Source: Bacteroidota bacterium (GTDB taxonomy: Bacteria; Bacteroidota; Bacteroidia; Chitinophagales; LD1). From it: a stretch of DNA of 64,000 nucleotides. The stretch lies in assembly GCA_016722375.1 (NCBI GenBank), contig JADKJG010000004.1:66867-130866 (forward strand), read 5' to 3'. The notes under the pieces were generated by a model. That model was not told the origin of the DNA, did not search any database, and saw only the letters and a list, made by a program, of their open reading frames with translations. A program made the position numbers and the translations under genes. Positions 3,910 to 48,529 of the stretch are shown one piece after another; the stretch's first letter is position 1, and the number at the start of each line of letters is the position of its first letter.

Positions 3910-4040
3910 GCAAATCATTTGGGCGGCTTACGGGCTTTCGGCTATATCTTTTTCGACTCGCTTATATTTTAAAGGATGAAAAAGGATGCCGCCTCTATCC
4001 CGGCCGCAGTGCAGCGCTCTTCATCAAGTTCTATAGATAA

Positions 4041-4067
4041 AAACAAAAGTCTTTAGGACGTTTGTTT
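4041..4067 (+). terminator. weak A/T-rich stem-loop downstream of hisIE
   Basis: AAACAAAAGTC-tttag-GACGTTTGTTT, an 11-bp stem with one mismatch followed by TT. Confidence 0.3.
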
Positions 4068-4100
4068 TTGAATAGCACAAAACAAATACTGACTGTGCAT

Positions 4101-4256
4101 TATAGCTCCGTAGGAGCTATATGTTTGGTAGTAAATAAACAGCCACTCATTCAATTTCCGTCGGAACGTTCGATACAAAACATTCGGTCGCCCCGATGGG
4201 GCTTGGCTTGGTTGACTGTAAATTCTCTACCAAAGGCTTTGACCCTACGGGTCAAG
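4101..4256. repeat. cluster of short GC hairpins with 3-nt loops (MITE/REP-like filler)
   Basis: TATAGCTCC-gta-GGAGCTATA (4101-4121), GCCCC-gat-GGGGC (4190-4202) and CTTTGACCC-tac-GGGTCAAGG (4237-4257). There is no convincing ORF. Confidence 0.4.
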
Positions 4257-4411
4257 GAATCAGTGCCACACATCTTTATATAAGCTTTCGAACACTTATG
4301 GGCACAGCCTACGCTCAGTTGGGTTTGATGTTTGCAGAGATTTTTATGCATTACTGCTACCATCCATTTCCCGCAACCAATATCTATTTATTGCGCGAAT
4401 ACAGCCCAAAA

Positions 4412-4655
4412 ATAAGGGCCCTTCGGCACGGCACAAGGGCCCTTCTCTTTCCGATGAGGACCCTTGTCTGACGGATGAGGGTTCTTCTCTGGCAGCGAAG
4501 GGCTCTCCTCTCTGCCATAAGGACCCTTATCCAGAGAATAAGGACCCTTGTTTATTGCGACAAGGACCCTTGACTGGCGCATGAGGTTCCTGTTCTGGAA
4601 AATGAGGGCCCTTGGGTGGCTGACAAGGACCCGAAAATTGAAAATAAGAGTCTAT
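4412..4655. repeat. 12-copy tandem array with 21-bp period, core AAGGRCCCTT
   Basis: Cores start at 4414, 4435, 4456, 4477, 4498, 4519, 4540, 4562, 4583, 4604, 4625 and 4646. The spacers are divergent. Confidence 0.9.
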
Positions 4656-4672
4656 GCTAAGAGCGTAAAACG

Positions 4673-4702
4673 CAAAAACCCCGCAAAAAGCGGGGTTTTT
4701 TG
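4673..4702. terminator. bidirectional rho-independent terminator
   Basis: AAAAACCCCGC-aaaaa-GCGGGGTTTTTT. It has an A-run on one side and a T-run on the other. It sits 25 nt past the stop of the minus-strand gene 4727-5389. Confidence 0.8.
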
Positions 4703-4726: not shown

Positions 4727-5389
4727 TTAAGATGTTGCTCCTAAAGCAATAATAATAGAATTGGCGGCGCTCCAGGGACCTGCACCCGCAGAATTTACCG
4801 CCCGCACCTGTACCCAAACCCGCTGACCTGCATGAGCCGGATTGGAAAGGTCAATAGCAGTAGAAGAAACATCATGGTCGAACGGCACCCAGACGATGGG
4901 GTCTGTGCCAAAAGGGTCATTGAAAGTGTAGCGCATGTTGTACCAAATATGGCCGAAGTGATGCACGGCATCCCAATGCGCATCTATGTGTCCGAACAAG
5001 TCATTGTGCGTTAAAGAAAGATTCTGAGCCTGCGGCGGACTCGTAACATCGGGAGCATTGAAGTCCTGAATAAACATGTTAGCGCTTTCAATAATCGCCG
5101 GGTCGCCACCACTCACGTTTTGAACGTATGCCGTTACTTTTACGCCTATATCCATCGCTGCCTTCTTTTTCAGTTTAGAGTCGGCCACCGCCATGCTCAA
5201 CTGATGCTTTAGAGTGGTTACCAGCGTTTCGGCTGCTTCCCAGGCATCGGTGGCCAGAGTCCAGTCTGCCAAGGATGGAAGGGGTACTGAAAAATTAATA
5301 TTGCCGGTCATCGCTGCGATGCAGGCGCGGAAGAGGGCGATGACCACCGTGGCGGTCTTGCCATACATTTTTAAGATTGCTTTGCTCAT
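4727..5389 (-). CDS. hypothetical protein with helical N-domain and FN3-like C-terminal domain (paralogue P1)
   Basis: 220-aa ORF. It aligns with 28242-28850 (MTGN.NF..P.P.LAD, AYVQ, GG..II.S) and has an FN3-like tail (RVWVQVRAVNSAGAGPWS). Confidence 0.75.
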   Translation of the reverse strand: MSKAILKMYGKTATVVIALFRACIAAMTGNINFSVPLPSLADWTLATDAWEAAETLVTTLKHQLSMAVADSKLKKKAAMDIGVKVTAYVQNVSGGDPAIIESANMFIQDFNAPDVTSPPQAQNLSLTHNDLFGHIDAHWDAVHHFGHIWYNMRYTFNDPFGTDPIVWVPFDHDVSSTAIDLSNPAHAGQRVWVQVRAVNSAGAGPWSAANSIIIALGATS

Positions 5390-5482
5390 ATAGTTTTTGT
5401 TTTAGAACTGCAAAAGTATATGCGGCGGGCATTGCGGCAGAAAAAGGTGATGAATGGCCACCAAGTGGGTATGAACGGCGAT

Positions 5483-5908
5483 TTAGTCCGGTATTTTGGC
5501 CTTTATTTTTCCGTGCGGAAAATAAATTTCGCGCACTTTTTTGATGTGTGTCTTCGAAACGGCCACCGTCATTCCGTTGGACATTAGGAGGTGTAGTTGT
5601 TTACTGGCTGTTTTCGCCTGATAGCAGTCCACCACATGTTTGCGGTTGATAATCACCCCGCGATTGACGGTCATAAACTCGGGGAGCTTCAACAGGTGGC
5701 AGTCCTTTACGGTCAGCTTCACATAGTATTCTCTGGATTTAGGAGACCCGCTCCCTTCGTCCTGCTCCAAGTGGTGATACCGGATGTAGTTAGACAGCTT
5801 GGTGGCCAGCACCAGTTGGTCGTAAAAAATTCTAACAGATCGTTCGAAACCCTGCACAGGTAGCAAGAAATAATCATCCATAGCGATATTGGGTTTTTGG
5901 TGTACCAA
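5483..5908 (-). CDS. stand-alone LytTR-type DNA-binding domain protein
   Basis: 141 aa. LytTR-like core FMTVNRGVIINRKHVV through to MSNGMTVAVSKTHIKKVRE. No receiver domain. Confidence 0.6.
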   Translation of the reverse strand: MVHQKPNIAMDDYFLLPVQGFERSVRIFYDQLVLATKLSNYIRYHHLEQDEGSGSPKSREYYVKLTVKDCHLLKLPEFMTVNRGVIINRKHVVDCYQAKTASKQLHLLMSNGMTVAVSKTHIKKVREIYFPHGKIKAKIPD

Positions 5909-6094: not shown

Positions 6095-7582
6095 ATGGCA
6101 AAACACCAACTGAAACCCCACACCATCTATTGCGGCGACAACCTCAAGATGCTGCAAGAAGTGCCCGACGAATCTGTTGACCTTGTTTATATAGACCCGC
6201 CCTTCAACAGCAACCGAAACTATGAAGTGTTTTGGGGCGATGCCGCCGAAAAGCGCGCCTTCAACGACCGCTTTGGCGATGCACAAGCCTACATAGACTA
6301 CATGCGCCCCCGCGCCGAACAACTTTATCGCGTGTTGAAAAAGACGGGCAGTTTCTATTTCCATTGCGACTGGCACGCCGACTCTTATGTGCGCCTCATG
6401 TTGGATGAAATATTTGGGGCAAATAATTTTCGCAATCATATTATTTGGCAAAGAACCAATGCACACAATGATGCAAAGAGTCAGTTTGGTGTAGTGAACG
6501 ATTCTATTTTCTATTATGCTAAATCAGATAAAACTTCTTTTAATGTTCAATACACTGCTTACGATGAAGATTACATCAAGAACTTTTACAGGTTCGATGA
6601 TAATGATGGGAAGGGAGTATATCGGATGGGTGACATGTCAGCACCAGCAGGTGGAGGAATGGCTGCAATAAACAAGAAAACCGGAAAGTCAAATGGATGG
6701 TACTACTATAAAGGATATGAACCACCAGAAAGAGGTTGGAGATATTCCGAAGAAACCATGAAGAAATTGGATGAAGAGGGTAAAATTTATTTTCCGATAG
6801 ATAAAAAAGGAGTTCCTGACTTTAAAAAGCGGCTGGCTTTCAAAAGATATTTGAACGAACAAAAAGGGCAATTGATTTCAAATGTCTGGACGGATATACA
6901 AAACCTGCAAGGTGCATCGAAAGAAGCATTGGGCTACCCTACACAAAAACCCATTGCGCTGATGGAAAGAATACTGGAAGCGAGCAGCAACAAAGGCGAT
7001 ATAGTGTTAGATGCTTTTTGCGGATGTGGCACTACTTTGGTGGCAGCGCAAAAGCTGGACAGAAAATGGATAGGCATAGACATTTCGCCCACCGCTTGCC
7101 GCGTGATGGCGCAAAGACTTTGGGATATTTTTAAACTGGATGAAGGCAAAGACTTTGAACTTTCCGACTTGCCACACACCGAAGAAGAACTGCGGCAGAT
7201 TCCGCACTTCGAGTTTGAGAACTGGGCGGTCATTGCCCTCGGCGGCATTCCAAACAAAATCAAAGTGGGTGATTATGGAATAGATGGAAAACTTTATCCG
7301 GTAGATTTAGTAAAGCAGAAGAAAACCGGCTCCGATTTGTTTGGCGACAGCGATATTTATTATCCCATCCAAGTGAAACAAAAAGACAAAGCGGGCCGAC
7401 CCGACATTGATGCCTTTGAAACCGCCATCCGCCGCGACGGCCGCCGCAAAGGCTACTTCATCTCTTTCGACTACACCTCCGATGCCATCAAAGAAATCAA
7501 GCGCCTCGACAAAGACGGCGAAATAGAAATTGTACCGATTACGGTGAAGGATTTGTTGCGGAAGGAGAGTTGGGGAAATTAG
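6095..7582 (+). CDS. beta-class N6-adenine/N4-cytosine DNA methyltransferase fused to a C-terminal Mrr-like (PD-(D/E)XK) restriction-endonuclease domain
   Basis: Motif IV VYIDPPFNS is N-terminal and motif I VLDAFCGCGTT comes later (beta permutation). The C-terminal about 130 aa (FEFENWAVIALGG, GDYGIDG, IQVKQ, GYFISFDYTSDA) match the Mrr catalytic-domain pattern. Confidence 0.8.
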   Translation: MAKHQLKPHTIYCGDNLKMLQEVPDESVDLVYIDPPFNSNRNYEVFWGDAAEKRAFNDRFGDAQAYIDYMRPRAEQLYRVLKKTGSFYFHCDWHADSYVRLMLDEIFGANNFRNHIIWQRTNAHNDAKSQFGVVNDSIFYYAKSDKTSFNVQYTAYDEDYIKNFYRFDDNDGKGVYRMGDMSAPAGGGMAAINKKTGKSNGWYYYKGYEPPERGWRYSEETMKKLDEEGKIYFPIDKKGVPDFKKRLAFKRYLNEQKGQLISNVWTDIQNLQGASKEALGYPTQKPIALMERILEASSNKGDIVLDAFCGCGTTLVAAQKLDRKWIGIDISPTACRVMAQRLWDIFKLDEGKDFELSDLPHTEEELRQIPHFEFENWAVIALGGIPNKIKVGDYGIDGKLYPVDLVKQKKTGSDLFGDSDIYYPIQVKQKDKAGRPDIDAFETAIRRDGRRKGYFISFDYTSDAIKEIKRLDKDGEIEIVPITVKDLLRKESWGN

Positions 7583-8270: not shown

Positions 8271-8529
8271 GTATTCTTGATTTGAAAAGACCTTGTAAGG
8301 ACAATCTATATTGATGAGCGCTGAGCTGCGCGAGAGATTGCAGTGGAAATCCTTTTCTTCTTTTAAGAATATACGAGTAGAAAAGATTGGAACGTAAAGC
8401 CCGACCGACGCCGAGGAACGAGGCGGGGGACGCGCCATTATTTTTTGCATTGTGTTTGTTTGGGTATTGATTAGGAATAGGTTGTTTAGGGATAATGGGG
8501 GAAGGCGATTGGTGGCGCGATAAAATTTA

Positions 8530-22053: not shown

Positions 22054-23394
22054 TCACTCCTTCACAAACTTTCTCACCACCCGCTGTTTATCATCCTGTA
22101 AAACCAGAAAGTAAAGACCGGGAGAAAAAGTAGAAACATCAATTTCAACGTCTTTCTTTAGAACTGCCAGATTATCCATAATTATTTTCCCTTCCAGATT
22201 ATAAATTTGGATAAAGGCGTTGGTGGCAAGAGAATGAGAAATACAATGTAAGTGATTTGAAACAGGGCTAGGAAATATACCTACGTGAAAAGTTCCATTG
22301 TTGATTTCATCCACGCTTGTTATAGTGCTACAAGTATCCGAATAATCACCCCCCAACCACTTCGCCACATAGTTAACCGTATCTCCATCAATAGCTAAAA
22401 AGGGGCCTCCGACATAAAGTTCATTATTATATACCGCCATGCAGTTCATTGCAATTGTAAAATTCGGAATGAATTTTTGGCCTAATCCACACCATTTGTA
22501 ACCATCCCACTTCGCAATGGCCAAGATAGGTACATCCCCTATCCTTGTAAATCTCCCACATGCATATAGCTCACCGTTAAAAACCTGTAGGTCGCTGATA
22601 AAAGCGTTTAAACTGGTCATTCCTGCTCCCGCATCTTTCCATAGTGTTCCGTTCCACCGGGCGACACAAAATCCAGGATTACCAAGCGTGGTGTCAAAAC
22701 CTCCACCGATGTAAAGATCATCTTCATATATCTCAAAACTTCCCACACCGGCAGCCCCGCCTCTTATGCCGTTGCCGACCGGAAGCCATTTAGCGCCGTT
22801 CCAATAAGCCAGGCGATCAAGCACCCCATCCTTAGTCACAAAATTGCCCCCTATGTATAAATTGCCTTGATACTCTACTGCTACACCAATTGGTCCATTT
22901 CCCCAGTTAGTAGTGTCAATCGCGCTCCACGACACCCCATTCCATTTCGCAATTGATTTAGCGGCCACTCCGGCTATGCTGTCAAAAAGACCATAAACCA
23001 CCAGATCATTTTTGTAAATTGTTGTTCCAAAGATAGATCCTCCGGAAACTTTGGCAAAAGTATCTACCTGATTGCCATCCCAACTTAAAAGAGTGATCGC
23101 ACCAAAAAGAATTTTACCCTGAAATGAAGTGATGTTATAGTCTGCGTAGTATTGGTGCAAAAATGGAATAGAATCCCAATCGGTTCCGTCAAACTGGGCC
23201 GCATAATGTACAGGTATTTCACCCACTTTAGTAAAGCTTCCAGAAGCATACATTAAATTACTTGCATTATCCACTTTAAACACATCAGGGGAGAAATTAA
23301 AGCCTGTGCCGGCCTTACTCCAGTGTTGCGAAAAGGATGAAGCGGGAGAAAGCAAAACAAATCCCATGAAAATCAATCTCATTTTATTAATCAT
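22054..23394 (-). CDS. T9SS C-terminal-domain protein (repeat/propeller-like)
   Basis: Signal peptide, repeated W.G..W units and the tail GLYFLVLQDDKQRVVRKFVKE. The start overlaps the stop of the upstream gene by 8 nt. Confidence 0.7.
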   Translation of the reverse strand: MINKMRLIFMGFVLLSPASSFSQHWSKAGTGFNFSPDVFKVDNASNLMYASGSFTKVGEIPVHYAAQFDGTDWDSIPFLHQYYADYNITSFQGKILFGAITLLSWDGNQVDTFAKVSGGSIFGTTIYKNDLVVYGLFDSIAGVAAKSIAKWNGVSWSAIDTTNWGNGPIGVAVEYQGNLYIGGNFVTKDGVLDRLAYWNGAKWLPVGNGIRGGAAGVGSFEIYEDDLYIGGGFDTTLGNPGFCVARWNGTLWKDAGAGMTSLNAFISDLQVFNGELYACGRFTRIGDVPILAIAKWDGYKWCGLGQKFIPNFTIAMNCMAVYNNELYVGGPFLAIDGDTVNYVAKWLGGDYSDTCSTITSVDEINNGTFHVGIFPSPVSNHLHCISHSLATNAFIQIYNLEGKIIMDNLAVLKKDVEIDVSTFSPGLYFLVLQDDKQRVVRKFVKE

Positions 23395-26300
23395 GCTTAA
23401 CTATTTGCTTAGCGGTACGCTGACTACCTACGTTGATTACCAGAAGATATATACCATTAGTCAAATCGCTCAAATCCATCTGATAACTTAGCGCGGTATT
23501 ACTACTAGCTCTTGATGTTTTGAGAATTTGACCGGTTATTGAAAGTAATTCAAAAGAAACGTTTTCTGTTATTGAGTTAGGCAATCTAATCGTTATCGTG
23601 TTCGATGATGGATTGGGAAATACCTGCACTTCTAATCCTGATGAATAAATATCTTTCACATCGACCATCCAATGCTCGTTAAAGTTAAAACGTGCCATAA
23701 TCGCATCGGAATTGATAACCGGAGGGGCAAGTTGCCTGTAAGCATTGGAACAACATAAGGTGAAAAAATTATCAGACCAGTTAGTTGCAACTTTATAATT
23801 AGGGCTAGTTGTGCTGCCGGCTATATACCAGTAGTGATTATCGCTACTAGTGGAGTTTACAACTATCGCATTGCTTTTATCAGACAAGATACCGCCATAA
23901 TATGTGGCCCAGATTCTTTCGTTATCAGAATTAAAATAACCCAGAAAGGCATCATCATAACCAAATGCCCTAATTGATCCCTCATTATAAAACCATGGGA
24001 TGCCTGATGAGGGCTGATAAATATAAGAACTACTAGTGCTGTTTGTTTGGCCGGAAAAGAAAAGCCGGTTTTCAAAATCCACGGATAGTCCATTGATAAC
24101 ATCTTCACCCGATCCACCGTAATATGTGCCCCATTCAAAAGCTCCGGCAGCGCTCAACTTTGCCATAAATCCGTCTGAAGCTCCGCCTCCATAAATGTAG
24201 GCTCCGATACCATTATCTTGGAAATATTTTGTTCCGCTCTTGCAAACAGGAAAACCACCACTGGTTGGCTCTTCACATAAAGTTGAATTAGGTGTAGATG
24301 AAGATGTACTCCCCCCGATATAAACATTGTTATTTCCGTCTAGGGCTATTGTTCTGGCCTCGTCGTTTCCTCCACCACCAAAATAAGTACTCCAATTATT
24401 TACCCCGACAGAAGTGAAACGTGCGAGGAAAGCATCTTCGTTACCTCCGATAGTTCCTTGATTATAAGCCCCGATAGAAGCATTGTTTGTGATTGGCAAA
24501 TTACCTGTTGTTTTACCTGTTACAAATAAGTTTGAGTTGCCGTCCATAGCTATGTCATAAATATAATCATCGTCTATACCTCCAAAAAAAGTACTCCAGG
24601 TAAGCTCACCCGTAGGGTCAAACCTCGCAATGAAACCATCAGTTGCCCCGCCCTCTCCGTCGCTGTTATACGCGCCAACGGGATGGCACTTGGGAAATTC
24701 ACCATCTCCCGGAACATCACAACTGGTTGAGGAGTAAGCATTTGTCGACGTATATCCACCCACGAAAAGGTTGTTAGATCCATCGTTCGTGATGGAACGT
24801 CCCGTTTCTTCTCCGCTTCCTCCAAAATAAGTAGCCCAACGGCTTAAAGGAAGCTGACCTCCACGCGCATTATCCAATCCTACAATAAAAGCGTCTCTGC
24901 TACCTTCAAGAGCGGTTTGGTGATAAACACCGCTATTTGAAAAAGTAGGAAAGTCATCGCTTTCGGTATATCCAGTGATAAAAACTTTGCCAGTGGCCGT
25001 ACCATTCCCAATCGTTTTAATCCCATAAGATTTTTCATCTGAGGTTCCTCCCCAGTAAGTTGCCCACAGGAATCGGTCTGCATCCTCCACTACCCCTTGT
25101 GTTGCGCCATTGGCAGAACCAAATTTGGATATAAAAGCATCATAGCCTCCAGCCGAAAACCTAAATGCTCCCAAAGATACACCCTTATTAACGGGAAAAT
25201 CAGTGCTTTGCGTAAAGCCGCACACATAGACATTCCCGTCGCCATCTACTGCAAGATCTGTTCCTTCATCTGACCCTAACCCACCTAAATAAGTGGACCA
25301 GTCAGGTGAGCTTATGTGTTCAATATCGCGAGGCCCGCTTCTTTGCTCAATCACCAAATTTTTTCCATCATCAAAATCCCCCAACTCGAACCCGAACTCA
25401 TTATCTCCCAAATCTTCATAAGCAATATCCACATAAACTTTCTCATCTCCATCAAATTGATAGGCAATGAGGGTATCTTCTGATATATATGAACCACCTG
25501 CATAAATACGCAACTTGTTGGCTTCTGCAATTATGCTGTCGGCTCCGTCATACTTCAACGCTCCGGTAGAAAATGTAACCGTGGGGTCTATCACCAATAA
25601 TGATTTCATTCCCTCGCCGCTGGAATGAACCTGCCAATCTATACCGTTGTAAACATTTTTTTGAACAATTCGGCTATGCCCTTCAACTCCGGTAATAGCT
25701 TCCGGCAAATAGCCAAGAAAATAGTTCAGAAAAGCTTCTGTTTTTTCGGAAGTATAAGTTTTGAATTTTGAGTAAACATATTCTCCTCTTGATATGAAAC
25801 TCATATCTATCCGGTATAAGGTATCTGTGGTGTTTACCGTGTCATCCGGCGCGTGAAGATGTGCAGTGACATAAGATAACCTTCCATCGCCCACATACAT
25901 TTGCGGGTTTCCGGCATTGGTATAGTAAAACACGCTATCTGCTGGTAGGAGTCGGTACCTAATATTTGCCCCCGGTTTTCATAGAAGGCATAAGCCTCAT
26001 TAGCGCCAGAGGTATCTATTGGGATAAATGCGGTTGTTTGTTGGTAAAACACCGTAGCATATACCGTATCCACAGGTCCGGTGCTGCGCCCTGTCACTAG
26101 TAAAAAAAACCGACTGACTAATTGCTCAATATATGTGCCACCCCAGGTCTTGGCAAAACTGTAAGCTACATCATCACAATCCGCACAGCGACTGTATGTT
26201 TTTGTCCACTGCGCAGCGACATCCGCCTGATAGCTACTGGTCAGGAAGTTGATATGGCTGCCATTCTGAATACCTCCGGTAATAAAAACATTGCTGCTGT

Positions 26301-27418
26301 CATCCATCGCAACCGCATTGGCTATAGCAATACCCCCGGGAATGGAGGAAGTAATTGTCCTGTCCCATAAGAAAGTACTGTCGCTTTGATATGTCAGCGC
26401 TACAGCATTTTTTTCGCCAGTGTATTTGATCGCCGTAGCAGAAACGGCCAAAACTTGTGTAAATGGATTATAGGCCAATCCGGTGGGTAGCGTAGCAACA
26501 CTACCCGGCGCTCTCCATTCTTCCACCCATTTTACGTTTAGCCCTACATCAAATTTCATCAGTTTTACATGCGGATCTAATCCGGCAGAATCAGCCAGAG
26601 CCAACAGGTAAATATCACGAGTGACGCCATCTACGGCTATATCTATGGCTTTCGTAAATTGATTTCTATCATTGCTTCCATAATTGATATGGTCAATTTC
26701 CCCATCATCTTTATAAAATGCTACCATCTGAGGTATCCACTCCGTGGTGCTGACTCCCACTCCGCCAATCAATCCAATACAAGGCCCGCCCCCTATTTGT
26801 TGAGCTATAACTTCATCTTTCAATAACCGGACAGCAACATCCGGAGCCCCTACACTGTCGTGATATGCAATCCATATTTCATTTCCGGCAGTGTCATATT
26901 TCAGTAAGGTGAGCATGTAATCATCTACGTCCGTCTGCTCGGTCACCGCCACATAAACAAATCCCGAATCATCTACGAGCATCGAGGAGGAAATATCGTC
27001 ACCCTCATAATCACCCTCATAATACTGTACCCAAAGCACATTCCCTTCGTTATCTACCCTACCGAAAATGACATCTCTGGAATCAGGTTCACCAAAAGTG
27101 CCCACTAAGTAAATATCATCTCCCTTTACTACCGCATCAGTAGCATAGGCTTCTACATTTTCAAGCATGGTTTCCCAAAGCACCACCCTCAGAGTCATAT
27201 TTGCGAATGGCAATGTTATCTCCCAAAAGCGTGGAATAATCGCTGGTGATGACAATGGTATTATCCTCCTGATCTACATAGTTAAGGATATGATAGTCGG
27301 CTTGGTTAGCTATCGAGCTGGTAAGCGCCCATCGCTGATTTAACAGAGTTTGAGAAAATGAATTGCTAAAAATTAAGGATAGGAGTGTAATAACTCCAAG
27401 ATGTAAAACTGTTTTCAT
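23387..27418 (-). pseudogene. about 1340-aa SBBP (beta-propeller) repeat T9SS cargo gene split into three ORFs by two frameshifts (as assembled)
   Basis: ORFs 27161-27418 (signal peptide), 25834-27255 and 23387-25933 are contiguous in sense. They carry repeated D.GN.YV.G.T.S.DFP-type units and a Por tail (VFPNPSSNTITIRL, GIYLLVINV). Confidence 0.7.
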
Positions 27419-27662
27419 TGTATTTATTTTGAGGTTAATAAATCAACTCATGTACCGCTAAACAATATTCAAAATCTCTACATTCCTATCTATCTAAATG
27501 CGGCGTATTTTATACCAATTGAACAGCAAGCTAAATTTATTTTTGTATTTGGTAAGCTTTGTTTTTTAACAGTCCTTGGCTTTATCCTTTAAATAGCTTA
27601 TCTCGTCATTGAAATCCACAAACCCCATATTGTTTTCCCCCATTTTCAATCACTTAATTTCT

Positions 27663-27876
27663 ATTCGCAGCAAGTCAGCGGCTATTCGTAACAGAATGAA
27701 AGCTAAGCGTGGCAGCTTAAACTTCAATCGTAACAGAATAGACATTAATCGTAGCAAGTTAAAGTCTATTCGGAAAAAAAAAAAAAGTAGCGGTATAGCT
27801 TCTAATCGTAGCAGAATGAAAGCTAATTCGTAACAGATTAGACTTTAATCTAGCAGAATAGAAGCTAATCGGTGCT
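27663..27876. repeat. tandem array of about 11 copies with about 21-bp period, core AATCGTARCA
   Basis: Cores at 27663, 27684, 27705, 27726, 27747, 27768, (27789), 27804, 27826, 27847 and 27867. The phase is broken once, by an A13 tract at 27774-27786. Confidence 0.85.
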
Positions 27877-28129
27877 AGTTCATGTCTGTTTGCAGGTTAG
27901 CTTTGGGTTTATATAATTTGGTTAGCCAAATGTTCCATAACCATAAGGCTAATTAGCGGCATTGACCGCTTTATTATATGTATTAGCCTAAAAATAAAGT
28001 ACTATTAGTATAATACAAAGTATATGTTTTATAATATGCTTATAAAAATGAAACAAGCTGAAATGTACTGCCGTATAATATTGTATATGCTTTTGCTTTA
28101 TGTACATAATATCGTTCTTGTAAATAAAC

Positions 28130-28215
28130 AGAGGGGAATGAAGTCCCGCTTTAAAAAACTTCTACTATGGTTTCACCAAAAGAGAGGAATGAAGTCTCGC
28201 TTGAAAAAACTTCTA
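28130..28215 (+). promoter_or_regulatory. duplicated 35-nt leader element (two copies, 51-bp offset) upstream of paralogue P2
   Basis: AGAGGGGAATGAAGTCCCGCTTTAAAAAACTTCTA (28130-28164) versus AGAGAGGAATGAAGTCTCGCTTGAAAAAACTTCTA (28181-28215). Both form a small stem, and the stem carries one compensatory G:C to A:T change between the copies. Confidence 0.45.
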
Positions 28216-28241
28216 AACTTGTTCAACAAAAACTAAATGTC

Positions 28242-28850
28242 ATGAAACTAAAAATGGGCTTTTTAGGATTGAGTATCGCTGAGGTGATAGATAGATCCAC
28301 GCTTATAGTGACTAAGATGACGGGAAACCCGAACTTTCCCACACCTGATCCGACGCTGGCTGATGTAACGACCGCTGCGGATGCACTTCTGGCTGCGTAC
28401 AACAATTCGCGCGACGGAGGTAAGACACTGACAGCCACCATGCGTTTGCGCCTGAAAGAGCTAATGGAGCTTAACAGGAAGCTGGCAGCGTATGTGCAGG
28501 CAGAGTCTTCGGGGGGTGAGGAAATCATCTTGTCCAGTGGTTTTGACGTGGTAAGGAGAGGTGATCCTACTCAGGTGGCGCAGGTGCATAACCTGCGCCT
28601 CCAACACGGCATTCCTGTCGGTAGCATTCGTGCTATCTGGGACAGAGTCGTGGGAGCGGGTGCCTATGTAGTGGAGCTTTCGGATACGGATGCCAATGGT
28701 CCGTTCAGTTTCCACCTTTGCACACTCAAAACCCGGTTAGATTTCACTGGTTTGGTGCCTGGTAAATTGTACTGGATACGTATCTACGCAGTAGGTCGTC
28801 ACAGTACCGGATTGCCGAGCGACATCAGTGTACACACCGCGAGCATCTAA
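28242..28850 (+). CDS. hypothetical protein with helical N-domain and FN3-like C-terminal domain (paralogue P2)
   Basis: The start is taken at MKLKMGFLGLS. Motifs TKMTGNPNFPTPDPTLADV and AAYVQAESSGGEEIILSSGF. FN3-like tail LYWIRIYAVG. Confidence 0.75.
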   Translation: MKLKMGFLGLSIAEVIDRSTLIVTKMTGNPNFPTPDPTLADVTTAADALLAAYNNSRDGGKTLTATMRLRLKELMELNRKLAAYVQAESSGGEEIILSSGFDVVRRGDPTQVAQVHNLRLQHGIPVGSIRAIWDRVVGAGAYVVELSDTDANGPFSFHLCTLKTRLDFTGLVPGKLYWIRIYAVGRHSTGLPSDISVHTASI

Positions 28851-47397: not shown

Positions 47398-47616
47398 TTA
47401 CATCCCGTCCCAATCTCTTTCGACGTTGTGCATGTCGGCAATCTTCTGCCAGTCGCCATTGGCGGCGGCCGTGATGGCGGTGCGCAGTTGATTATTCTTT
47501 GGGGTCATATCCGCGAGGGTCACGTTGGGGGTGACAAAGGTGCCGGGGTTGGCCGCAATCTTCGCAATGTTACTATCTCCCAGCGCCACTTTCTCTGTGG
47601 CAGATTTTTTAAAAAT
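47398..47616 (-). pseudogene. truncated third paralogue (P3) of the FN3-tailed family
   Basis: The open frame reads KKSATEKVALGDSNIAKIAANPGTFVTPNVTLADM, matching the N-domains of P1 and P2. It has no ATG, only about 70 aa, and the FN3 part is missing. Confidence 0.6.
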
Positions 47617-47721
47617 TTAAGTGCTACCCTTACTCTTCTCATGTTGTTTAGGTTTTAATGGTTAAAAAATAATGGTGCATTGATTTTCGGAAATAAAAGG
47701 ACCGGAAGGGGCATTTGCATA

Positions 47722-47971
47722 GCCTGTTTTCCTATAGGAAAAATACTTTTTCCTATTTGCTTGACTCGTTTTCCTATAGGGAAAACCCCTTTTCCCTATT
47801 AGCTTGCCCTGTTTTCCTATAGGAAAAACACTTTTTCTAATTAGCTTGTCCTGATTCCTATAGGAAAAAAGCTTTTTCCAATTAGCTTGTCCTCTTTTCC
47901 TATAGGAAAAACACTTTTTCTAATTAGCTTGTCCTGATTCCTATAGGGAAAACACTTTTTCCAATTAGCTT
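47722..47971. repeat. six-copy tandem array with 42-bp period, containing a perfect 16-bp palindrome TTTTCCTATAGGAAAA
   Basis: Palindromes at 47727, 47769, 47812, 47853, 47895 and 47937. Units 3+4 and 5+6 form a near-identical 83-84-bp higher-order repeat. Confidence 0.9.
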
Positions 47972-48157
47972 TTGAGGCCGGAATTGCTGAAAAAGGCTGA
48001 TTTTGGTTCATTTTCGGGTTTTTTCGGGCTTTTGAGCGCTTTCAACCCAAATGACGCAATAGAAAAAAGGGGTATTTTTTCAGCTTAAAATCCTAATGCG
48101 TAGAGCGTTAGAGAAAGTAGCCTATGGAATTCGATGTATCCTTAACTAACAAAGAGA

Positions 48158-48529
48158 TTGCGCCTGTTTGCCGAAGATGAAACCTGTCGAAACTATCGCT
48201 ATTCTACCTATGTTACCAATCTCGAGTTTGCTCCCGCAGAAGTGTGGCGGATGTACCGTGGCAGAGGGGATGCGGAAAACAGAATTAAGGAACTGAAACA
48301 AGACTTTGGTTTTGACAGCTTTAACTTAAATGGATTTTACCCAACCGAAGCCGCACTGACTTTTGCCATGATTGCTTATAATCTAATGTCGCTTTTTAGA
48401 ACCTTTGCCATTGGAGCATATTTTGAAAAGCAAAATGGTAAACTCGACCTAAATAAAAAACGAAGAAAATGGTTTTCCTGTTTATGGAATTATCCACTTA
48501 AAATTCCTTTTCATTTTTCTAATCCGTAA
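48158..48529 (+). mobile_element. C-terminal fragment of a DDE (IS4/IS1380-like) transposase; IS remnant
   Basis: YRGRGDAENRIKELKQDFGFDSF matches the Y-2-R-3-E-6-K signature. Only about 120 aa remain and no inverted repeats were identified. Confidence 0.65.

Follow-up and report, generated by a model that had tools for sequence, protein, structure and literature searches.

Rows of phased protein-binding sites have been described at the BvgA-activated promoters of Bordetella. At Pptx and Pfha, dyad sites recur every two helical turns on one face of the DNA, and the row ends at the core promoter (PMC7250471). Six BvgA dimers, arranged head-to-head, are bound 22 bp apart, the final site adjoins the -35 element, and many weak sites act together (PMC7250471). 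The LytTR regulators provide a second geometry, in which repeats of 9-10 bp and a spacer of 12-11 bp add up to a 21-bp period (PMC2766830). The sites of the AgrA/AlgR/ComE type are two direct, non-palindromic repeats, usually located by the -35 element. Plasmid iterons, sopC, and parC are tandem, phased protein-binding repeats with double-digit copy numbers; in sopC of F, a 43-bp repeat that contains an inverted repeat occurs 12 times. At the RNA level, the CsrB/RsmZ-type sponge RNAs carry many A(N)GGA-like motifs followed by an intrinsic terminator.

The locus analysed here has features in common with each of these systems. It is an array (array 1; 4412..4664, no strand assigned) of 12 head-to-tail units of 21 bp with one step of 22 bp, located in a 64-kb stretch of Bacteroidota DNA that is called the window below. 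Array 1 resembles a BvgA-like row in its 21-bp step, its dyad cores, and a -7 box that abuts unit 1, with protein binding being predicted. The differences are 12 or more units instead of 3-6, a step of 21 instead of 22 bp, a core of its own at each locus, and, in array 1, a row that overlaps the -7/-33 region. The 21-bp centre-to-centre period is also that of the LytTR sites, and a LytTR gene is adjacent here; however, array 1 consists of 12 mostly palindromic cores, so that it shows the LytTR geometry without the direct-pair form.

In each unit of array 1, the conserved core AYRAGGRCCCTT precedes a spacer of about 9 bp. The 12-mers of the units are ATAAGGGCCCTT (unit 1, start at 4412), ACAAGGGCCCTT (unit 2, 4433), ATGAGGACCCTT (unit 3, 4454), ATGAGGGTTCTT (unit 4, 4475), CGAAGGGCTCTC (unit 5, 4496), ATAAGGACCCTT in both unit 6 (4517) and unit 7 (4538), ACAAGGACCCTT (unit 8, 4560), ATGAGGTTCCTG (unit 9, 4581), ATGAGGGCCCTT (unit 10, 4602), ACAAGGACCCGA (unit 11, 4623), and ATAAGAGTCTAT (unit 12, 4644). 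Units 9, 11, and 12 are degenerate. Direct reading of the sequence confirmed the strictly phased 12-unit array of the initial annotation, and the unit starts reproduce its ten steps of 21 bp and one of 22 bp (the step tally gives 21 bp for 9/11). The two best cores, at 4414-4423 (unit 1) and 4435-4444 (unit 2), are indeed the perfect 10-bp palindrome AAGGGCCCTT. The core is more conserved than the spacer, as had been proposed, and the information content peaks in the core. The spacers had been called nearly unrelated, which is wrong: they are diverged copies, and some units share 71-76% identity across the whole 21-mer.

The core was found only in array 1 within the window. On the plus strand, all seven matches of the motif AGGRCCCTT in the 64 kb fall inside the array. 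Both strands together gave nine matches, against 0.81 expected, and 0/100 shuffles reached nine. A repeat search recovered the same 12-mer family, with spacings of 21, 21, 63, 21, 22, and 42. The core at 21-bp spacing was also searched in larger collections, and no homologous copy was recovered. The genome collection yielded only hairpins and apparent coding repeats in unrelated phyla, the metagenome collection four unrelated matches with no homologous array, and the viral collection zero matches. At three unrelated loci from Actinomycetota and Verrucomicrobiota (L202, L206, L208), AGGRCCCTT recurs at 21-bp intervals within a 63-bp super-period, and the lag-21 identity is 0.96-0.99; coding repeats are the probable explanation. 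Among 80 loci examined for hisIE synteny, synteny stops at the hisIE stop codon, and 0/80 have an array there. A dispersed REP, BIME, or MITE, the last of which would have refuted the initial reading, was rejected, given that the core is confined to the array in the window and that the pattern scans of the collections recovered no homologous copy. A CRISPR array was rejected as well, the core being 12 nt with related 9-nt spacers, compared with repeats of at least 23 nt and unique spacers of about 26 nt or more.

Array 1 lies in non-coding DNA, as was first suggested, and open frames through the arrays are inconsistent. It might otherwise be read as a coding heptad repeat, for 21 bp equal seven codons and the product of a minus-strand ORF with an ATG (4388-4582) would be a 64-aa peptide that contains a KGPY heptad; gene callers also call such ORFs over other arrays. 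Against this, the frame is lost at the 22-bp step, the ORF does not extend over units 9-12, and it lies just downstream of a terminator. Homologous arrays are open in differing frames, sometimes in two at once. Since the open frames disagree between paralogues and between loci, the coding reading was discarded and is hardly credible. Predicted heptad-repeat proteins over arrays occur at L227 (224-502), L236 (1359-1691), and L235 (1-273). These predictions are probably spurious, arising from a 21-nt period without stop codons.

Autocorrelation at lag 21 identified exactly three regions in the window (4376-4623, 27625-27838, and 47698-47853), and lags 20 and 22 identified none. A profile HMM of the protein family encoded beside array 1 also found exactly three members in the 64 kb, each with one array about 70-350 bp away. 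The first member is p220 (4727..5389, minus strand; 220 aa; HMM E = 1e-55), which has a helical hairpin and an FN3 domain. The second is p227 (28242..28850, plus strand; HMM match 28155-28847, E = 5e-60), a p220 paralogue with 29% identity (E = 2e-13). Array 2 (27661..27890, plus strand) lies 5' of p227 and contains about 11 units of 21 bp with the unit CTAATCGTARCAGAATGAAAG. It is interrupted by a poly-A run. In the leader of p227, just before the start codon, a direct repeat of about 45 bp, aacagaggggaatgaagtcccgctttaaaaaacttcta, is present twice (28128-28225). The third member is an N-terminal fragment (47401..47616, minus strand; HMM positions 10-77, E = 1.2e-8). Array 3 (47715..47975, minus strand) is located 5' of this truncated gene; its units of 21 bp, about 12 in all, are paired into 42-bp double units that carry the palindrome TTTTCCTATAGGAAAA. 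A transposase fragment (DDE_Tnp_1_4, 48158-48529) flanks array 3. Arrays 2 and 3 are thus on the 5' side of their genes, whereas array 1 is on the 3' side. Elsewhere in the window, about 1.5 kb of the minus strand (25900-27418) beside a beta-propeller T9SS cargo gene (23387-25900) has no long ATG-initiated ORF, and may be a degraded or frameshifted gene.

The initial annotation had used the FN3-tailed gene as a landmark for array 1. The position was correct, and family profile and structure both support the FN3 tail; the family turned out to be more than a landmark, as it is the conserved partner of such arrays across phyla. The family proteins are mostly about 207 aa long, with an N-terminal helical hairpin bearing the motif MTGNxNFPTPxPxLA and a C-terminal FN3 domain. 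Profile search recovered at least 250 members (E <= 1e-5), all of them unnamed or labelled merely as FN3-domain proteins. Close homologues of p220 are few, and exact look-up of p220 and of the protein P0003 returned no record. A structural model based on 117 sequences (pLDDT 93.5) contains a short helix, a conserved loop with MTGNxNFPTPxPxLA, a 54-residue helix, and the FN3 domain. In the fold search, FN3 domains were the sole matches, with no known DNA-binding fold. The N-terminal domain had no Pfam, NCBIfam, PADLOC, or meaningful PHROG match. The family proteins are mostly acidic (pI about 5-6). On these grounds (charge, FN3-only fold matches, and an unannotated N-terminal domain), the family protein was disfavoured as the binder of the array; judged from the model, it would be a poor candidate for a sequence-specific DNA-binding protein.

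With its 12 phased repeats, array 1 looks like an iteron array or a sopC-like centromere, and it might accordingly have belonged to a plasmid-type replication origin or partition centromere of an integrated element. Unlike iterons, sopC, and parC, the array has no Rep, ParA, or ParB gene, and no rep, par, or integrase gene is nearby. It is chromosomal, flanked by the histidine-biosynthesis gene hisIE and other chromosomal genes. Neither 72,556 plasmids nor 50,697 phages gave a match to the family. There are several arrays per genome, three of them with different cores within 64 kb, and they are tied to the FN3-tailed family. The plasmid analogies of the initial annotation were dropped, and an origin or centromere seems very improbable.

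The same pairing was found in other genomes. Every related locus that was fetched, from Bacteroidota, Planctomycetota, and Acidobacteriota, contains an array and a family gene; the pairing loci are L214, L215, L217-L220, L221-L224, L227, L228-L232, L233/L234, L235/L236/L238, and L239/L240. In a control set of 644 kb of Bacteroidota loci, four lag-21 matches were obtained, and 213 earlier loci (about 1.6 Mb, including those 644 kb) contained zero family genes. The class comprises lag-21 arrays within about 600 bp of a family gene. Array 1 belongs to it and lies on the 3' side, like L214. No description of a module of array and family gene was found in the literature.

The closest p220 homologue with retrievable DNA is P0002 of L214, which has about 71-73% protein identity (73% by BLASTP). 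The order of gene, bidirectional terminator, and 21-bp-phased array is the same as with p220. The cores of L214 are unlike those of array 1, namely TTAGAGCTCTAA, TTAGTGCACTAA, and ATCAATGCACTAA paired with TTAGTGCATTGAT. Between the two loci, the arrangement has been kept and the cores have been replaced. On its non-terminator side, the L214 array faces a 107-aa gene. The position 3' of the family gene and past a terminator occurs only at this locus and L214, and all other arrays are 5'.

The more distant homologues of L215-L220 have their arrays directly 5' of the gene. L215 has the core AGGTCTGACCT; a DUF805b RNA motif (RF02914, 1107-1143, 45 bits, above the gathering score) lies directly 5' of its family gene, P0004. 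One Bacteroidia MAG contains five paralogues with 21-bp arrays (L216-L220). L218-L220 have 16-18 units with the core TTCAATGTTGAA or TTCAATATTGAA, L217 has the core AATCC-N6-GGATT, and L216 shows two units alone, at the start of the fetched stretch. In the marine Bacteroidota L221-L224, the array is upstream of the gene, with the core TGACGTAACA. L225/L226 have the core GTGAATTCAC, repeated at a 42-bp period only. The planctomycete L227 has 12 or 13 near-perfect units around ATGAGCTCAT, and L228-L232 share the core TGTGACG. L233/L234 (Bryobacteraceae) contain about 12 units of GGCGAGTTTTGACTCTCTGGC and L239/L240 about 10 units of CCGGACGGCGTTTGGGAGTCA, and the arrays of L235, L236, and L238 are weaker. 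The leaders from array to start codon at L221 5890-6000 and L228 3890-4000 have in common TGTCTGAAAG, two hairpins with compensatory changes, and GCTGAGGCCGTTAACTAAAA, which suggests a structured, conserved 5' UTR in this subfamily.

Comparison of the arrays showed that the 21-bp step is the universal feature of the class. Steps of exactly 21 bp account for 14/14, 10/10, 14/15, 17/17, 11/11, 11/11, and 9/9 in the arrays tallied elsewhere, and for 9/11, 7/10, and 8/11 in the window arrays. The arrays consist of 5-18 units, in which the information content is high over a core of 10-12 bp and lower in the spacer, and each array has its own core. A palindromic core is common but not universal; dyad symmetry is strong in most arrays and weak in L233, L239, and array 2. 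The array sequence changes more quickly than the protein does. Consensus units agree at 21/21 positions where the proteins are 92% identical, at 16/21 where they are 68% identical, and at 12/21 where they are 57% identical. L217 and L218, which are 86% identical paralogues in the same genome, have unrelated cores. Between near-identical strains, the arrays differ by one substitution and one 1-bp indel. Since these arrays are all but identical, they are not slippage-hypervariable.

The constant step, together with cores that differ by locus and outpace the protein, would also fit a structural role independent of sequence, in which in-phase bends would curve or wrap the DNA or provide a nucleoid protein with a nucleation site. 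GGGCCC is a known bending element, and many arrays contain phased A/T tracts. Against this, a specific core is kept within each array while the spacers drift, which points to sequence-specific selection. A purely structural element is, in our judgement, improbable.

The unusual 3' position of array 1, unlike the canonical 5' position, and its degenerate units 9, 11, and 12 might instead mark a decaying, functionless minisatellite, left behind after loss of a family gene or inversion of the p220 cassette. On the same side, the family HMM detected no gene remnant in 3910-4410. Against a relic, seven units are still exact matches to the core, and a perfect -7 box abuts the array. Moreover, the order of gene, terminator, and array has been kept in L214 at 71% protein identity despite the replaced cores. 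An orphan relic is regarded as doubtful.

By Pfam, the neighbours of array 1 encode HisIE, the FN3-tailed protein, a LytTR protein, and a methyltransferase. A bidirectional intrinsic terminator (4673..4702), with an A-run, an 11-bp G+C-rich stem, and a T-run, separates the array from the 3' end of p220. This feature of the initial annotation is well founded, in that the arms (4674-4684 and 4690-4700) are 100% complementary and lie between an A-run and a T-run; it is also kept in the relative L214. The array ends 17 bp before the terminator and 72 bp from the p220 stop codon. To the left of array 1, about 490 nt of non-coding DNA are rich in hairpins (z about -4.7 for each strand). Perfect hairpins, short and with loops of 3-5 nt, occur between hisIE and the array at 4039-4069, 4100-4122, 4187-4207, and 4236-4258, the first of which looks like a second bidirectional terminator. 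A Flavo-1-like RNA motif is also present between hisIE and the array (3924..4009, minus strand), scoring 40.9 bits against an Rfam threshold of 42. Another Flavo-1 RNA, at 8320-8410 on the plus strand, is above the Rfam gathering score (55.1 bits).

The LytTR-only gene (5483..5908, minus strand) reported at first is supported by Pfam (E = 7e-6). It is directly upstream of p220 on the same strand, in an apparent operon, and 0.8 kb from array 1. For this locus only, its product is a candidate binder of the 12 units, and the array period equals the documented 21-bp geometry. The known LytTR sites, however, are paired, non-palindromic direct repeats and not 12 palindromes. Arrays 2 and 3 have different cores and no adjoining LytTR gene. 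No LytTR gene is among the called neighbours at any other array locus, that of the closest relative (L214) included, and the idea of the LytTR gene as a general partner did not hold. It is quite unlikely that array 1 is a LytTR operator.

The Bacteroidota -7 consensus is TAnnTTTG. Perfect matches occur about once per 2.3 kb per strand in the window. One perfect match, TATTTTTG (4407..4414, minus strand), abuts unit 1 with a 1-base overlap and points leftward. A second, TAGCTTTG (27898-27905, plus strand, sense for p227), abuts array 2. A third box, TACTTTTG (5411..5418, minus strand), is 21 nt upstream of the p220 start codon and is likely p220's own promoter. Promoter activity at 4407..4414, and its direction, are predicted from the match to the consensus. 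The minus-strand order would thus be p220, terminator, array 1, promoter, about 490 nt of non-coding DNA, and the Flavo-1-like motif, which is downstream of this -7 box. In the other genomes, no perfect -7 box is adjacent to the arrays, and the putative contact with a promoter is limited to this genome.

The terminator after the array on the plus strand also raises the reading that array 1 acts as RNA. The mutually complementary cores of the transcribed array would fold into a chain of hairpins and serve as a small RNA, a protein sponge, or an mRNA leader. Transcription would be of the plus strand, up to the terminator at 4673-4702, or of the minus strand, as a leader or read-through product. 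Shuffled sequences fold far less well than array 1, for which z is -7.3 (plus strand) and -6.0 (minus strand). Counting G-U pairs, unit 3 is complementary to unit 4 over its full length, and the array contains ACAAGGA and AUAAGGA, which we take to be similar to the CsrA-type GGA motifs. In L214, the two strands fold at -131 and -105 kcal/mol, with 22 G-U pairs. This G-U asymmetry looked promising in L214, but it was gone across 12 arrays, where the better strand was sense in two, antisense in five, and neither in five, and it was abandoned as evidence for RNA. Palindrome arrays fold well on both strands in any case. The A-for-G changes in GGACCC, found in five units, are mostly without compensation in the partner unit. 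Arrays with weak dyad symmetry exist, and the fixed 21-nt spacing has no obvious RNA rationale. In contrast to CsrB/RsmZ, the motifs lie in self-complementary cores and not in hairpin loops, the class has no strand bias, and other arrays are without any GGA motif. A search of Rfam 15 found no family over array 1; the RsmY/rsmX matches (15 bits) cover the terminator only. An RNA element, by either route, is considered rather unlikely.

The two-turn period is fixed regardless of sequence, which favours a function of the double-stranded DNA over one of RNA. The phase, the core that is better conserved than the spacer, and the link to a gene family argue in the same direction, as do the lack of an RNA strand signal and of a coding signal. 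We consider it about an even prospect that array 1 is a double-stranded DNA operator or enhancer array, on which a dimeric factor would occupy one helix face and which would abut a promoter. Protein binding, as originally proposed, is still the best reading of the array, though it is predicted from the sequence pattern; the iteron, plasmid-centromere, and general LytTR analogies attached to it were not sustained. In this reading, the arrays are a recurrent cis-element inherited with the genes of the FN3-tailed family (about 207 aa), and a sequence-specific protein would occupy each core as a single dimer. With a step of 21 bp, equal to two turns of B-DNA, the dimers would come to lie on the same helix face as a cooperative row, and the row would end at a core promoter and control it. 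At this locus, the controlled transcript would run leftward on the minus strand from the 4414-4407 box, from about 4400 to 3910, through the hairpins and the Flavo-1-like region. p220 would not be the controlled transcript, because it has a promoter box of its own.

Several observations do not fit the DNA operator reading easily. The sole conserved neighbour, the FN3-tailed protein, is mostly acidic and shows no known DNA-binding fold. Array 2, L233, and L239 have little dyad symmetry. The 3' position of the array here and in L214 is unlike that at the other loci, and the perfect -7 boxes next to arrays are limited to this genome. The locus-specific cores imply that no single regulator serves all loci, and the different cores even in 86% identical paralogues mean that several different binders would be needed.

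The gene at 6095..7582 (plus strand) encodes a DNA methyltransferase with a fused Mrr-like nuclease domain. It has 52% identity to a methyltransferase beside the module in an Acidobacteriota MAG (Bryobacteraceae, L233 928-2472), and MmeI-type enzymes flank the module of gene and array in L221-L224. The linkage of methyltransferase and module might reflect a defence island or a functional tie, both being possible from gene order. Since a methyltransferase-Mrr fusion or an MmeI-type enzyme is adjacent in three lineages, a connection with defence or DNA modification is possible. We tentatively suggest that the FN3-tailed protein and the phased array could form an undescribed module across phyla, which would be read by locus-specific recognition and maybe tied to defence. 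The reader would then be a co-evolving factor or the family protein itself via a novel mode, with the core evolving fast and in concert while the phase stays fixed.

Array-spanning heptad-repeat proteins in current annotation are probably spurious entries. If the pairing holds, hundreds of uncharacterised FN3-tailed genes in environmental bacteria carry an unusually long, strictly phased regulatory array with a sequence of its own at each locus. In that case, they would provide a natural system for the study of concerted evolution in rows of sites, the upkeep of helical phasing, and the role of this widespread protein family.
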